64,000 nucleotides of DNA, taken from Parachlamydiales bacterium (lineage in GTDB: Bacteria; Chlamydiota; Chlamydiia; Chlamydiales; JAJFMK01). The notes under the pieces were generated by a model. That model did not search any database. It was given only the letters and a program-made list of their open reading frames with translations, and was not told where the DNA came from. The position numbers and the translations under genes are program-made. Location of the stretch: the NCBI GenBank assembly GCA_963765145.1, contig CAVXVG010000028.1, positions 1 to 64,000 on the forward strand, written 5' to 3'. Positions 20,892 to 34,835 of the stretch are shown here, piece by piece. Every line of letters begins with the position of its first letter. Positions within the stretch are counted from its first letter, which is position 1.

Positions 20892-23402
20892 TTAAACTAG
20901 TTCAAGGGACGTTTGAGTTAGCTCTCGGATGTACTGGATCAGCCCCTCTGGCTTGAGATAATTCTCCCAATGTTTTTTTTGCTCATCGTAAAGCTTAGTA
21001 ATCTTTGCTTTCATTGCATCTACTCGTTGCTGACTTTTGCCTACAATTGCTTGGTAGAGAAGCTGGATGTGCCGGCTTAATAAAGCATCACCATCACCTT
21101 GTTCAAGGGAGGTGGCTAAATAATTCTCAATCACAGCATGCTCATGCATCCTCGAGAAGTTCATTAGATCTTCAACCTGTTCGGAAAAACAAATTGACCA
21201 ATGGGTGATTACCTTTTCTTGAATTCTTTTTGCAGCTCCCTCTAGAAGGGTTTTCCATTGATTTTTAGTATTCCCCGGTGTGGTTAGAAGGGTGAAAGCT
21301 TGCTCTGCAATTTGTCTGTCTTTCAGAGGTAGCTTTGTGAAATCGGGCTTAGGTTTGTAGATTTTTCGAGTCCCTAAACTTTCAGACTTTTGGTCAAGAA
21401 ACGATTCGCTAACAGCCGCTTTCCTAAAGTTGTTTAAATCGGAGAAAAAAAGCTCTGTATAGCCAAAAGCATATTGCTCAACCGATACTCGGCAACTATA
21501 AAAGCGTTTGACGATGCCAGCTTTTCCTTCCCGTCTTTGATTGAGGTTTCGAAGTAGAAGCTCTTGAGCTGCAGACGTTGATATATCTACGTCCGGTAAT
21601 TCCAACTGCTCAAGCGAAAGTGCCATTTCAGATTCTCCTGGCTCCCCTTGCCGTCCAGCGCGCCCCCTCACCTGCCTTTCCGTCCGTAGTGAATCAGGGT
21701 GAAAAGTAAAATGGAGGAGAAGACCCCCATTCTGAACACTTTTTTTACTGAGCTTGACATTCGTTCCACGGGCAGCATTGAGAGTGGCAACAGTTAGGCT
21801 TGTTTCAAACCCAGCATTGTCGATAATTTCATCCTCACTTTTCTCCTGCACTTCATTCATCAATTCAAAAGATATCCCATGATCTTTTAACAGTTTGGCT
21901 ATAGTATTAGATTCTTTAATCGTTTCGCAAATGAGCAGCATCGGGCGCCCCAATGCTTTCATCTGCCTTGCACGCTGAATGGAATAATTTCGACGCTCTT
22001 CTGTCGTCCTAAAAATTCGATCTGGAAGATCGACCCGGATGGAGGGGAAGTGAGTGGGGACATCAAACATTTTGAATTGATAAAGCTCGTCAATCGTCTC
22101 TCTTTCGAGCGCCCCCCCTAAAGTTCCAGTAAAGCCTAGCTTTAGGGCAAATTTGTTATAAAAAACGGAGTGGGATAGGGAAATAGGACATAGAGATTCC
22201 TTTTCAACATCTATTCCATGCTTAGCCTCTAAAAACTCTTGGACTCCAGCTTGCCAGCGGGAATGATGTTGAGTTCTTCCCGATTTATCAACATCCACTA
22301 TCAAGATGCTTTTTTTCTTAGTTCCATCTGGTTGTTCTGACAGATCAACGACATAATCTTGACCCTCTTCTCTTTTAAAAAGCGCTGTATGTCCTGAATC
22401 CAGCCACTTATTTAAATCTGCATCAACTAATTTTTCGGCCTGTTCTTTATGCTGGCCCTTTTCGAATTCGATTAGAAACTTCTTTAGTTTATGTAAGGCA
22501 TTAGGTGGAAACGGATCGGTATGTAGCCGATTTTTGTAATGGGTTTGTATAAAATCTAGAATGAGAGGATAGACCCAGTCATTAGAAAACTCCTTTGGAT
22601 AACTGAGTCGCGCACTATTTAAAGCGGTGTCGACCGTCAGAAAGTCTGCTTCGTCTATCATAACAAAATCAAAGGTCCCTTCAAACAACACGGTACCATG
22701 CAGCATCTCTCTCATCACCGCAAATTCAAAGTCTGAAGTCGTTCCATAGAGAAGCTGGGCTTTAAATGTTTCTGCAGAAGGTTGATGATCACAGATGTGG
22801 CGTGTCTTCATTCCAAAAATTTTAAGGAAATTGACGAAAGCTTTTTGATCTCGGATAGATAATCCTTTTGCCGATGAGATGGAAGCCCCTTTTTTCCCCA
22901 GCATCAGAAGGACAAAAGCCCCTAACCCGTTGATCATCGATTTCCCCTCACCAGTCAACACCTGCCCTATAGCATGTGTTCGGATAGCAAGCAGAGCTTC
23001 GACTGCTAGAACTTGAGTACTATGAAGGTAGAGGTGAAATTTTAGCCTTAAAGCTAGTCGACCAACAGCAATTAGCTTCAGTAAATCTTCATCTGTTTTA
23101 TTTTCTTTTTTTCGGATCTCATTGGTTAAATCGACCAATTGTCCCATACGTAAGTTTTCCCATTGGCTGCAAAAATCTTGAACAATGCCATACCATTGCT
23201 CAATGGTATCAATCAAGTGTGGATCTAGAGGAAATTCGACATTGGGGTCTTTGATCTTCCCACTGAACCTATCGATGATCATACGGATGTCTTTCGATGT
23301 GTCGACGTGGGGAAGGTTTTCATCTGGTACCCTTTCTTCTAACCAATCAATGAAACAGATCCACGAGATCTGCCCATGAGAAAAGAAACGCAATTGTACC
23401 AT
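20892..23402 (-). CDS. Non-canonical SecA-like DEAD ATPase
   Basis: GQVLTGEGKS, IDEADFLTVD, SRWQAGVQEFLEAKHG, GFTGTLG, ATLNAARGTNVKL and RQVRGRAGRQGEPG correspond to the SecA motifs. Confidence 0.88.
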   Translation of the reverse strand: MVQLRFFSHGQISWICFIDWLEERVPDENLPHVDTSKDIRMIIDRFSGKIKDPNVEFPLDPHLIDTIEQWYGIVQDFCSQWENLRMGQLVDLTNEIRKKENKTDEDLLKLIAVGRLALRLKFHLYLHSTQVLAVEALLAIRTHAIGQVLTGEGKSMINGLGAFVLLMLGKKGASISSAKGLSIRDQKAFVNFLKIFGMKTRHICDHQPSAETFKAQLLYGTTSDFEFAVMREMLHGTVLFEGTFDFVMIDEADFLTVDTALNSARLSYPKEFSNDWVYPLILDFIQTHYKNRLHTDPFPPNALHKLKKFLIEFEKGQHKEQAEKLVDADLNKWLDSGHTALFKREEGQDYVVDLSEQPDGTKKKSILIVDVDKSGRTQHHSRWQAGVQEFLEAKHGIDVEKESLCPISLSHSVFYNKFALKLGFTGTLGGALERETIDELYQFKMFDVPTHFPSIRVDLPDRIFRTTEERRNYSIQRARQMKALGRPMLLICETIKESNTIAKLLKDHGISFELMNEVQEKSEDEIIDNAGFETSLTVATLNAARGTNVKLSKKSVQNGGLLLHFTFHPDSLRTERQVRGRAGRQGEPGESEMALSLEQLELPDVDISTSAAQELLLRNLNQRREGKAGIVKRFYSCRVSVEQYAFGYTELFFSDLNNFRKAAVSESFLDQKSESLGTRKIYKPKPDFTKLPLKDRQIAEQAFTLLTTPGNTKNQWKTLLEGAAKRIQEKVITHWSICFSEQVEDLMNFSRMHEHAVIENYLATSLEQGDGDALLSRHIQLLYQAIVGKSQQRVDAMKAKITKLYDEQKKHWENYLKPEGLIQYIRELTQTSLELV

Positions 23403-23406
23403 TACT

Positions 23407-33383: not shown

Positions 33384-33425
33384 TGAATAATTCTCTGGCT
33401 CATGTGATTCCTTTGCATGAGAAAG

Positions 33426-34835
33426 TTACTCCCCTTCAACGATACCCTTGGGCAATTTAGAGGGTCCACTGTCAGCCTCTTCAGAGGCCATGCGGACAAT
33501 TCGAGGCTGAAACTTACCTAATACGTCAACTAGATCTTTTTGCTCTTCCATCACTGCGTCAATAGCTTTGTAAGCTTGTGGCGCTTCATCTAAACCTCCA
33601 CCGATTAGATCTATTCCACGTTTTGATAAGTATTCAGCATGCTGCTCATGAGTAATGTTTTGCTTTGCTTTAGTACGGGCCATTAAACGTCCGCTGCCAT
33701 GAGAAGCTGAGTTTAAAGAATCGGGATGGCCTTTACCCACAACCAAATAACCGGGATCCGCCATTGTTCCGGGAATAATTCCTAAAACGCCTCTTCCAGC
33801 AGGTGTTGCACCTTTGCGGTGAACAATTGCCTCTAGCTCTTTCCCGTCGACCACGATCTTTTCCCGCCACGCAAAGTTGTGATGATTTTCAATAGTGGCA
33901 ACCGGCGATATCCCAAGTGATTGAGCGATTCTTTGGTGGATAACATGATGATTTGCCGATGCAAATTCTCCGGCAAGCTCCATGGCGTCCCAGTATTCCC
34001 TTCCAATGTCCTGATCAAGGGGCAACCATGCCAAATGTTTCACAGAGCGATCCAACCCATCCATTCGCTCCATGGCAATTTTAGTGTAATGGTTGGCTAT
34101 TTTGAAGCCTACTCCCCTAGAGCCGCTATGAGAAAGGAGTGCAAGGTAGTGTCCTGTCGGCAGATTAAGAGGGTTTTCTGGATTTGAGATTTCTAATTCC
34201 CCCCATTCAACAAAATGGTTTCCTCCACCACTTGTTCCTATTTGACAAATCGCAGTATCTCTCAATGATTGAGTCAATTTTGACAGATTCCAGCGGGATT
34301 TATCCAAAATAGGGTGTTCAATTTTACCATCATGGATACCTGCAGCCCCTGAACCAAATATTGTGTTGTTCACTAAGGCTGAATAAAGATGCTTATAATC
34401 TGAGCTTTTATTGTTTCTAAGAACTTGCAGTGAAGAGGGATAAACTGTCAGCATCATTCGGCAAGCGATGTCGACGCCTACTGCATATGGAATAACTGCG
34501 TTCTCTGTCGCCAAAACACCGCCAATAGGAAGACCATACCCCATGTGAGCATCGGGCATTAACGCCCCGGCTAATGCCACAGGCAAACGAGCAGCCGCTG
34601 ACATTTGTGCTAAAGCTTCTTCTTGGATATGTTTTTGCCCCCAAATTCTATAAGGAATTGGCTGTGTTTTTAACTGCAAGTTCCTTCGCATTTGCACAAA
34701 TTTATTTTCAATGTCTCGTACAAAGCAAAGGGCAACCTCGGGGCTTGATGTTTTGTAAAGATTCCAAGCCGTACTCTTCTCCGCATCTGTTAACAAAAAT
34801 TGACCTAGCAGCTCGTGAAATTCTTTTGGGCTCAT
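33426..34835 (-). CDS. rtcB: RNA-splicing ligase RtcB
   Basis: MPDAHMGYGLPIGG, VGVDIAC, GGGNHFVE, HSGSRG, HRKGAT, SHGSGR and DEAPQAYK. Confidence 0.95.
   Translation of the reverse strand: MSPKEFHELLGQFLLTDAEKSTAWNLYKTSSPEVALCFVRDIENKFVQMRRNLQLKTQPIPYRIWGQKHIQEEALAQMSAAARLPVALAGALMPDAHMGYGLPIGGVLATENAVIPYAVGVDIACRMMLTVYPSSLQVLRNNKSSDYKHLYSALVNNTIFGSGAAGIHDGKIEHPILDKSRWNLSKLTQSLRDTAICQIGTSGGGNHFVEWGELEISNPENPLNLPTGHYLALLSHSGSRGVGFKIANHYTKIAMERMDGLDRSVKHLAWLPLDQDIGREYWDAMELAGEFASANHHVIHQRIAQSLGISPVATIENHHNFAWREKIVVDGKELEAIVHRKGATPAGRGVLGIIPGTMADPGYLVVGKGHPDSLNSASHGSGRLMARTKAKQNITHEQHAEYLSKRGIDLIGGGLDEAPQAYKAIDAVMEEQKDLVDVLGKFQPRIVRMASEEADSGPSKLPKGIVEGE

Follow-up and report, generated by a model that had tools for sequence, protein, structure and literature searches.

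A probable inverted toxin-partner cassette with an exchangeable slot and a linked SecA-like ATPase in a Parachlamydiales genome

What kind of system occupies the block at positions 20892-34835 of contig CAVXVG010000028.1 from a Parachlamydiales bacterium, within the 64,000-nucleotide stretch (positions 1 to 64,000, the window) analysed here? A preliminary description made from the letters alone had proposed a new toxin system comprising an RtcB RNA ligase, two immunity-like proteins, a giant protein with Ntox28 and ankyrin domains, a membrane protein and a SecA-like ATPase. Its seven co-oriented minus-strand open reading frames (ORFs) were confirmed, with lengths of 469, 242, 191, 2236, 277, 310 and 836 aa and gaps between successive ORFs, from the 469-aa ORF onward, of 42, 182, 9, 3, 0 and 4 bp, and the tRNA-Leu that it placed nearby was located at 19971-20058. 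The last two ORFs, which it had counted separately, correspond to one frameshifted gene, so that the locus comprises six genes, of which one is split. Not seven but four genes make up the conserved unit: an upstream immunity-like gene, the giant, a membrane-hairpin protein and the SecA-like ATPase. It is found in bacteria whose hosts are amoebae and fungi. This unit is very probably a polymorphic toxin-partner cassette of some kind, in which a toxin slot inside the giant is exchanged between lineages together with the gene upstream of it. Besides the single nature of the last gene, the preliminary description had overlooked the polymorphism of the slot and the 191-aa gene as a slot-matched immunity candidate.

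The ~14-kb block is an insertion, because the DUF155 and fadL-family genes that flank it lie only ~200 bp apart in the same-genus genome G001; similarity between the window and G001 ends at 20874 and restarts at 35175. G001 carries a related cassette at a different site. The parts of the cassette in the window are as follows.

31897 to 32472, minus strand: core gene 1, encoding a helical HEAT-like protein of 191 aa that is the predicted cognate immunity partner of the Ntox28 slot
25177 to 31887, minus strand: core gene 2, the giant carrier of 2236 aa, with N-domain, toxin slot, mid-domain and ankyrin repeats
31534 to 31812, minus strand: N-domain of the giant (aa ~26-118, ending WPxLxAAG), predicted export, targeting or processing element
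31216 to 31533, minus strand: variable toxin slot, here Ntox28 (Pfam E 1.4e-13), predicted tRNA anticodon nuclease
29278 to 31215, minus strand: conserved mid-domain (aa ~225-870), putative delivery module
25180 to 29277, minus strand: ankyrin-repeat rod (aa ~870-2236; Pfam Ank_2, 15 stretches, E 5e-110)
24340 to 25173, minus strand: core gene 3 of the chlamydial form, a 277-aa protein with a hydrophobic hairpin of two hydrophobic segments
23407 to 24339, minus strand: N-terminal half of the SecA-like gene (310-aa ORF), 49% identical to aa 1-308 of the G001 protein
20892 to 23402, minus strand: core gene 4, the SecA-like ATPase gene, here its motor half (836-aa ORF), which shares 59% identity with aa 307-1149 of the G001 protein

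In an alignment of 110 giants, a conserved N-domain of ~95 aa is followed by a poorly conserved slot (aa ~119-224), the mid-domain and the ankyrin repeats. The mid-domain is the most conserved region, with a core at aa 225-600, a second conserved patch at ~780-850 and the motifs IGGV, PFFSLH, LDYxMKG and VGGCG. A search with it returned 140 homologues of 1229-3913 aa, and it is present at 80 loci in Chlamydiota and Pseudomonadota. Homologues of the components, whose co-occurrence elsewhere the preliminary description had made a test of its proposal, do recur together at such loci. The mid-domain matches no Pfam family at E<=0.1, ankyrin matches swamped the comparison of its profile with the PDB, and the ESM Atlas held no usable match for it or for the N-domain. 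Database names of the giants are limited to "ankyrin repeat protein", "hypothetical" or a transferred AnkX label.

The slot, at aa 119-224 of 2236, is internal, and its partner gene lies upstream. Of 185 slots, 162 had the length needed for clustering on their first 105 residues; the 146 unique sequences among them fell into 21 clusters, with sizes of 43, 40, 24, 11, 7, 5 and 2 and 14 singletons. Ntox28 is matched by each of the 14 class-0 locus slots scanned, in two cases below the cut-off, and by none of the 35 other proteins scanned; other giants hold Ntox50 (PF15542) or AHH (PF14412) in the slot. Some giants have lipase or ubiquitin-hydrolase families at some point of the chain. On a FastTree tree of 107 mid-domain cores the slot class switches 48 times, against a minimum of 12 and a range of 55-69 in 200 shuffles, and the nearest neighbour is of the same class in 44 of 107 cases; thus the history of the slot retains some phylogenetic signal, and swapping dominates it.

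The upstream gene changes with the slot. At the 39 loci with a visible upstream ORF, the 191-aa family stands beside 13 of 15 Ntox28-class giants and at none of the 24 loci of other classes. Another family is found upstream at 8 of 11 class-1 loci, LRR proteins at 4 of 7 class-2 loci and a third family at 3 of 3 class-4 loci; no upstream family is common to two slot classes, and nine upstream ORFs are singletons, some of them unrelated. The toxin-plus-immunity logic that had been proposed for the locus is supported, the immunity function being predicted. Across 400 scored genomes of the order (G094 was outside this scoring, as for Ntox28 and the N-domain), the 191-aa family occurs in 23 and Ntox28 in 17, with both in 14 when the lists were compared by eye. 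These figures are tallies rather than statistical tests, because related genomes are not independent. The 191-aa protein has no Pfam match and weak HEAT-repeat matches only (PP2A scaffold, E 0.07-0.1), and is predicted to be a slot-matched immunity protein.

Members of the family also occur apart from the giant. G001 has an intact orphan copy, 73% identical to the window's gene (the cognate gene of G001's own cassette is 50% identical). It is joined to what is left of a SecA-like gene, its last ~175 codons, and the giant is deleted. More orphan or tandem copies are found in G168, G204, G186 and G308, and short genes made of N-domain plus slot, a feature of orphan cassettes, also occur. In G168 (contig C35, locus L242, 8709-11806) two copies of the family lie among toxin-like and immunity-like genes in a small, mixed group where no giant is in view. 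A distant relative of the family follows Ntox28 on an Rhs-type toxin, a weak match (hhalign 62%, E 7e-5). At locus L234 (466-1712, G050 contig C71) an Rhs-core protein ending in Ntox28 is followed by a HEAT-like gene, on a contig that may be foreign to the main organism of the bin.

The Ntox28 domain named in the preliminary description was recovered at aa 129-218 of the giant (Pfam E 1.4e-13, 51.4 bits against a cut-off of 25). The profile of the Ntox28 class matches the CdiA-CT of E. coli 536 (EC536; PDB 5J5V, E 0.0024); the window's slot sequence alone did not retrieve CdiA from the PDB, which the class profile alone did. His165 of the window's slot aligns with the catalytic His178 of EC536, and the window's toxin is likely to be active. 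With the profiles of slot classes 1 and 2 no meaningful solved structure was found. In a Legionellaceae metagenome-assembled genome (MAG), a protein with a Scabin/pertussis-S1-like ADP-ribosyltransferase and a colicin pore-like domain (L131, 7045-8517) is encoded divergently from a mid-domain giant.

The N-domain belongs to no Pfam family and was found in 42 of the 400 scored genomes and 34 of 216 genera, with 219 representatives at E<=0.001 in a 1.84-billion library. Its predicted structure (pLDDT 87.9) is beta-rich with one helix and has no clear fold match (best VIA, Z 4.0, root mean square deviation 4.8, 70 aligned; Foldseek none at E<=0.001), a comparison that speaks neither for nor against a new fold. 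Seven of 13 short forms of the giant (900-1300 aa) carry a Sec-signal-like peptide instead; their N-termini were read by eye, as toxin columns in the N-domain profile cause a spurious N-domain flag in these forms. Because such a peptide replaces it in the seven short forms, the N-domain appears to sit at the position of an export signal. In the window's giant no hydrophobic N-terminal segment was seen, and the genome carries an export gene of the SctV/FlhA family.

One of the signal-peptide short forms is a paralogue in the window's own genome (G000, contig C1, 42926-47488), a 1000-aa protein with a signal-like peptide, a class-1 slot, mid-domain and ankyrins, with a 189-aa gene upstream; its contig is low in GC and holds F-type tra-like genes, an integrase-like gene and further ankyrin giants. 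The Mycoavidus and Neisseriaceae giants (L137-L147) have a divergent N-domain, a variable slot and a Gly-rich linker, and are preceded by variable genes of 350-550 aa without a Pfam match.

The 836-aa ORF contains the Pfam domains SecA_DEAD and P-loop_SecA. Together with the 310-aa ORF, which covers the N-terminal part, it corresponds to a single intact protein of 1149 aa in G001; the frame changes at about 23.42 kb of the window. The Walker A G-x-G-K, the Glu/Asp of the DExD motif and the arginines of motif VI are invariant in 44 of 44 SecA-like homologues, and a preprotein-binding domain was found in 12 of 13. A canonical secA gene (929 aa) lies elsewhere, on contig C21. Among 84 unique giants, 50 have a length of 1900 aa or more. 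In the 40 of these that are fused or are followed by 3 kb of sequence, the SecA-like gene is downstream in 35, fused in two, elsewhere in the locus in two and absent in one. The dedicated SecA-like partner suspected in the preliminary description is thus downstream of or fused to 37 of 40 long giants. Beyond the two of this set, P0166, P0198 and P0199 are fusions as well. Records with a fusion come from Ca. Jidaibacter, a Legionella MAG and an entry labelled Holosporaceae, the first and last of which look almost alike and are counted once; the pair of giant and SecA-like protein is also present in records from Legionella, Mycoavidus, Neisseriaceae and other gammaproteobacteria. The 277-aa ORF has adjacent hydrophobic segments at aa 121-144 and 147-173, and 19 other distinct homologues of it were found in giant-containing loci by a two-step hidden Markov model search. 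A SecA motor is apparently used here without its usual channel.

The split of the SecA-like gene in the window may reflect a pseudogene or an assembly error; if the frame is truly shifted, this copy of the cassette may be non-functional. In contigs from three sequencing runs of one study the inferred absence of depth at ~23357-23466 leaves the frame change uncovered. Two frames were seen in only 2 of 31 orthologue pairs between G001 and G000, one of which resembles tandem paralogues. The neighbouring DUF155/RMND1-like gene (20097-20875) is also split into two ORFs where G001 and G002 have one frame of 262 aa; this split is probably an assembly indel. At 20171, within that gene, a public contig holds one additional base, which hints at assembly indels.

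Two further genes lie upstream of the conserved unit.

33426 to 34835, minus strand: accessory rtcB RNA ligase of 469 aa (Pfam RtcB E 6.5e-81), not conserved with the cassette
32655 to 33383, minus strand: accessory CdiI_3 plus winged-helix-like protein of 242 aa (Pfam CdiI_3 E 1.2e-22)

The preliminary description had counted both as parts of the system, which the related loci do not support: neither gene was found at any of the 80 mid-domain loci or in 45 further genome stretches, two overlapping sets with many members ending at contig ends. The 242-aa protein, with a ScpB-like C-terminal part besides CdiI_3, matches CdiI of EC536 (PDB 5J5V chain C, E 3.1e-5), and its gene has a GC content of 34.8% against 44.1% for the contig. 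CdiI_3 is rare (7 of 401 genomes); at six other CdiI_3 loci there was no giant nearby, and one such locus adjoins an LRR gene resembling the class-2 partners. We consider the gene likely to be an orphan immunity gene against Ntox28-type toxins. RtcB is found in 56 of 151 genomes of the order, and the closest copies, 88-89% identical, lie at two unrelated G001 sites (L179 and L183), so that the gene looks mobile in this genus. Each of these two copies is near a gene pair, which we take to be DUF692-like. We take both accessory genes to be local protective additions, for which the many Rhs proteins of the genome could be the context.

That rtcB and both immunity-like genes are nevertheless integral to one system is a very improbable explanation. 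The genes are co-oriented within one insertion, and CdiI, which neutralises the type member of Ntox28, is a relative of the 242-aa protein. RtcB joins RNA ends with a 2',3'-cyclic phosphate and a 5'-OH. Ntox28 cleavage leaves just such ends (PMC11724271), which would suit a toxin and a repair enzyme in one unit. As a conserved unit, however, the seven-gene arrangement is contradicted, since rtcB and the 242-aa gene recur at no related locus examined and each stands alone elsewhere.

For the four-gene core, the reading that we lean towards, and hold to be moderately probable as a whole, is a polymorphic toxin-immunity cassette in which the ATPase would be the dedicated motor of the giant and rival intracellular bacteria the target. 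A number of observations weigh against it. Two Ntox28-class loci lack the cognate upstream gene. The residues Asp155 and Glu181, which matter in EC536 (PMC11724271), are His and Asp at the corresponding positions in the window; Asp and Glu are kept in G001, and the H..D type of active site occurs in ~10 of 43 Ntox28-class members. The C-terminal GYGI tail that binds CysK is absent from the window's internal Ntox28 domain, and most other slot classes have no Pfam match, their toxin nature being suggested by position and by conserved His/Asp/Glu residues. On the side of the motor, Pfam SecA_SW (wing/scaffold) gave no match at E<=0.001 in 13 SecA-like proteins, in which a divergent form is possible, and no SecY-like gene or multi-pass membrane protein is present among the seven ORFs. 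The ATPase is not needed by every version, because a downstream SecA-like gene is absent in 13 of 13 short forms with enough flank, and the Mantel correlation of 0.68 between mid-domain and SecA-like distances is of a kind that kinship alone predicts. Giants (0.44) and SecA-like proteins (0.40) have a higher S/T/P/N/Q share in their first 24 residues than immunity proteins (0.22) or background (0.30), a composition signal in favour of type III export that is weak. Finally, the named carriers are intracellular bacteria, endosymbionts or parasites, ankyrins are typical of host-directed effectors, and both the lipase and ubiquitin-hydrolase payloads of some giants and the Legionella giants inspected, with no N-domain and no evident immunity partner, fit host targets.

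The last of these points favour a host-directed effector platform, in which giant and SecA-like protein would be exported into a eukaryotic host, the payload damaging RNA of the host or of its organelles, and the upstream gene would merely shield the producer before export. TPR repeats beside the ankyrins agree with this, as does the listing of SecA-like domains among Amoebophilus host effectors in PMC3482391. Orphan and tandem immunity genes that persist after loss of the toxin, however, make little sense without an incoming toxin, and repeated slot swapping with matched partners is the pattern of conflict between bacteria; we regard the platform as possible but unlikely. Less probable still is an intracellular toxin-antitoxin or abortive-infection module with a cytoplasmic giant, whose RNase the SecA-like ATPase would free on sensing an invader or the loss of the element. 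The antitoxin-first gene order, the insertions at different chromosomal sites and the nuclease payload would suit such a module, and ATPases and repeat proteins are generally common in defence layouts. The Sec-signal-like N-termini of the seven short forms and the membrane-hairpin partner speak against it, the named records are restricted to host-associated lineages, and PADLOC matches are confined to the ankyrin region apart from one weak DpdF (E 0.007). The anti-phage suicide role is the least likely of the three roles that the preliminary description had offered, the others being action against the host or against competing bacteria.

Under the polymorphic toxin-immunity reading the cassette may work as follows. 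Slot and upstream gene are exchanged together between lineages, as observed, and the upstream protein would bind and block the toxin in the producer's cytoplasm. The giant would exit N-terminus first, led by the N-domain or, in the short forms, by the Sec signal, with a type III system as the most plausible route. The ankyrin rod and mid-domain would then engage the target and the ATPase, which would clamp the chain and thread the N-terminal payload across a membrane; the conserved AAG directly before the slot is a possible processing site. Once inside, Ntox28 would, judging by homology, cleave tRNA anticodon loops, and the CdiI-like gene and rtcB, added upstream in this genome only, may give extra protection and repair. 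We more tentatively consider, as an idea that is rather doubtful, that giant, hairpin protein and ATPase, all exported into the host cell, form a self-contained translocase outside the producer, with the ATPase spending host ATP to push interchangeable nucleases into co-infecting bacteria by way of a channel that the mid-domain would form.

How does the cassette relate to known systems? With polymorphic toxin systems, as set out by Zhang et al. 2012 (PMC3482391), it shares a constant carrier with variable toxins from a common pool (Ntox28, Ntox50, AHH), an adjacent matched immunity gene, orphan and tandem immunity genes, and immunity proteins of HEAT and LRR types. In contrast to their usual C-terminal toxin and downstream immunity gene, its toxin is N-proximal and internal and its immunity gene upstream; its carrier domains match none of the export signatures listed there, and a SecA-like ATPase is linked or fused. 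That source names chlamydiae for several toxin domains and lists Ntox28 without chlamydiae and without an immunity family. The cassette thus behaves as a polymorphic toxin system yet fails two defining features of layout. With contact-dependent growth inhibition (CDI) of E. coli 536, known from CdiA-CT EC536, CdiI and CysK (PMC11724271), it shares a homologous Ntox28 with its catalytic His, and a CdiI homologue lies two genes upstream of the window's giant. Unlike CDI, it has no CdiB or filamentous haemagglutinin carrier, no C-terminal toxin and no GYGI tail, and its partner is HEAT-like.

The Amoebophilus APD1/APD2 proteins (PMC3482391) are proteins of endosymbionts in which variable effectors follow a conserved N-terminal prodomain, and SecA-like domains occur among them. 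They carry a signal peptide and lipobox, have variable C-termini and are read as host-directed, whereas the variable part of the cassette is internal and paired with immunity. The N-domain of the giant may resemble APD1. Accessory SecA2/SecY2 systems likewise pair a giant substrate gene with an additional ATPase of the SecA family, the canonical secA lying elsewhere; unlike these, the cassette has no SecY2, and its ATPase has an extra N-terminal region, occurs fused to its substrate and scores far below the SecA2 cut-offs (192 bits against 930). In giant actinobacterial toxins with SecA-like and MFS domains a SecA-like ATPase is predicted to aid secretion of the giant toxin (PMC8195603); these belong to other taxa and have other domains (GT4, ART, metallopeptidase, MFS), and the passage of that paper that deals with them mentions neither a swappable slot nor matched immunity. 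The three toxin-immunity loci of Ca. Bodocaedibacter vickermanii (PMC8163844) share the setting of a protist endosymbiont, but have the classical layout of C-terminal toxin and downstream immunity, with no linked SecA-like gene described in the accessible text. The cassette, as tested, belongs to none of CDI, SecA2/SecY2 or APD1, and is very probably a polymorphic toxin system with an inverted layout and a new carrier. The claim that no described system has this layout has held in the full-text literature searched, which leaves most subscription papers outside; the additional file of PMC3482391 may list some of the proteins.

Other features of the neighbourhood and genome are less closely tied to the cassette. 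Promoter and terminator scans performed no better than chance (27 against 29.3 and 15 against 15.8). No CdiB and no filamentous haemagglutinin or two-partner-secretion-type CdiA domains were found among the seven ORFs; elsewhere in G000 there are a ShlB-family gene (contig C29, 34-807) and 66 matches to Rhs-repeat proteins (contigs C5, C7, C21, C24, C26, C27 and C32), with no VipB match in a genome that is 84.8% complete, so that the toxin arsenal of this genome is large. Upstream of rtcB, at 34922-35035, lies a palindrome with 33-nt arms that has 72 blastn matches throughout the genome and is probably a REP/REPIN-type element. Next to the FadL-family gene are genes for a fatty-acid hydroxylase and for HMG-CoA reductase (36574-38440), and fragments of the HMG-CoA reductase region are also present directly upstream of the G001 cassette.

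For the biology of chlamydiae, the finding shows the cassette, with predicted immunity genes that occur matched, swapped and orphaned, in about one in ten of the genomes sampled, and yields a new predicted Ntox28 immunity family, several unnamed candidate toxin and immunity families and two unclassified domains. According to PMC6520448, it is unknown by what means chlamydial symbionts hold back other bacteria inside amoebae, and toxins are one option; the giant, which is present in Neochlamydia records, is a concrete candidate for this suppression. The cassette would be categorically new if its SecA-like motor moves the payload outside the producer, and were the translocase idea true, it would represent a new class of toxin delivery common to chlamydiae, Legionella, Mycoavidus and Jidaibacter-like symbionts.

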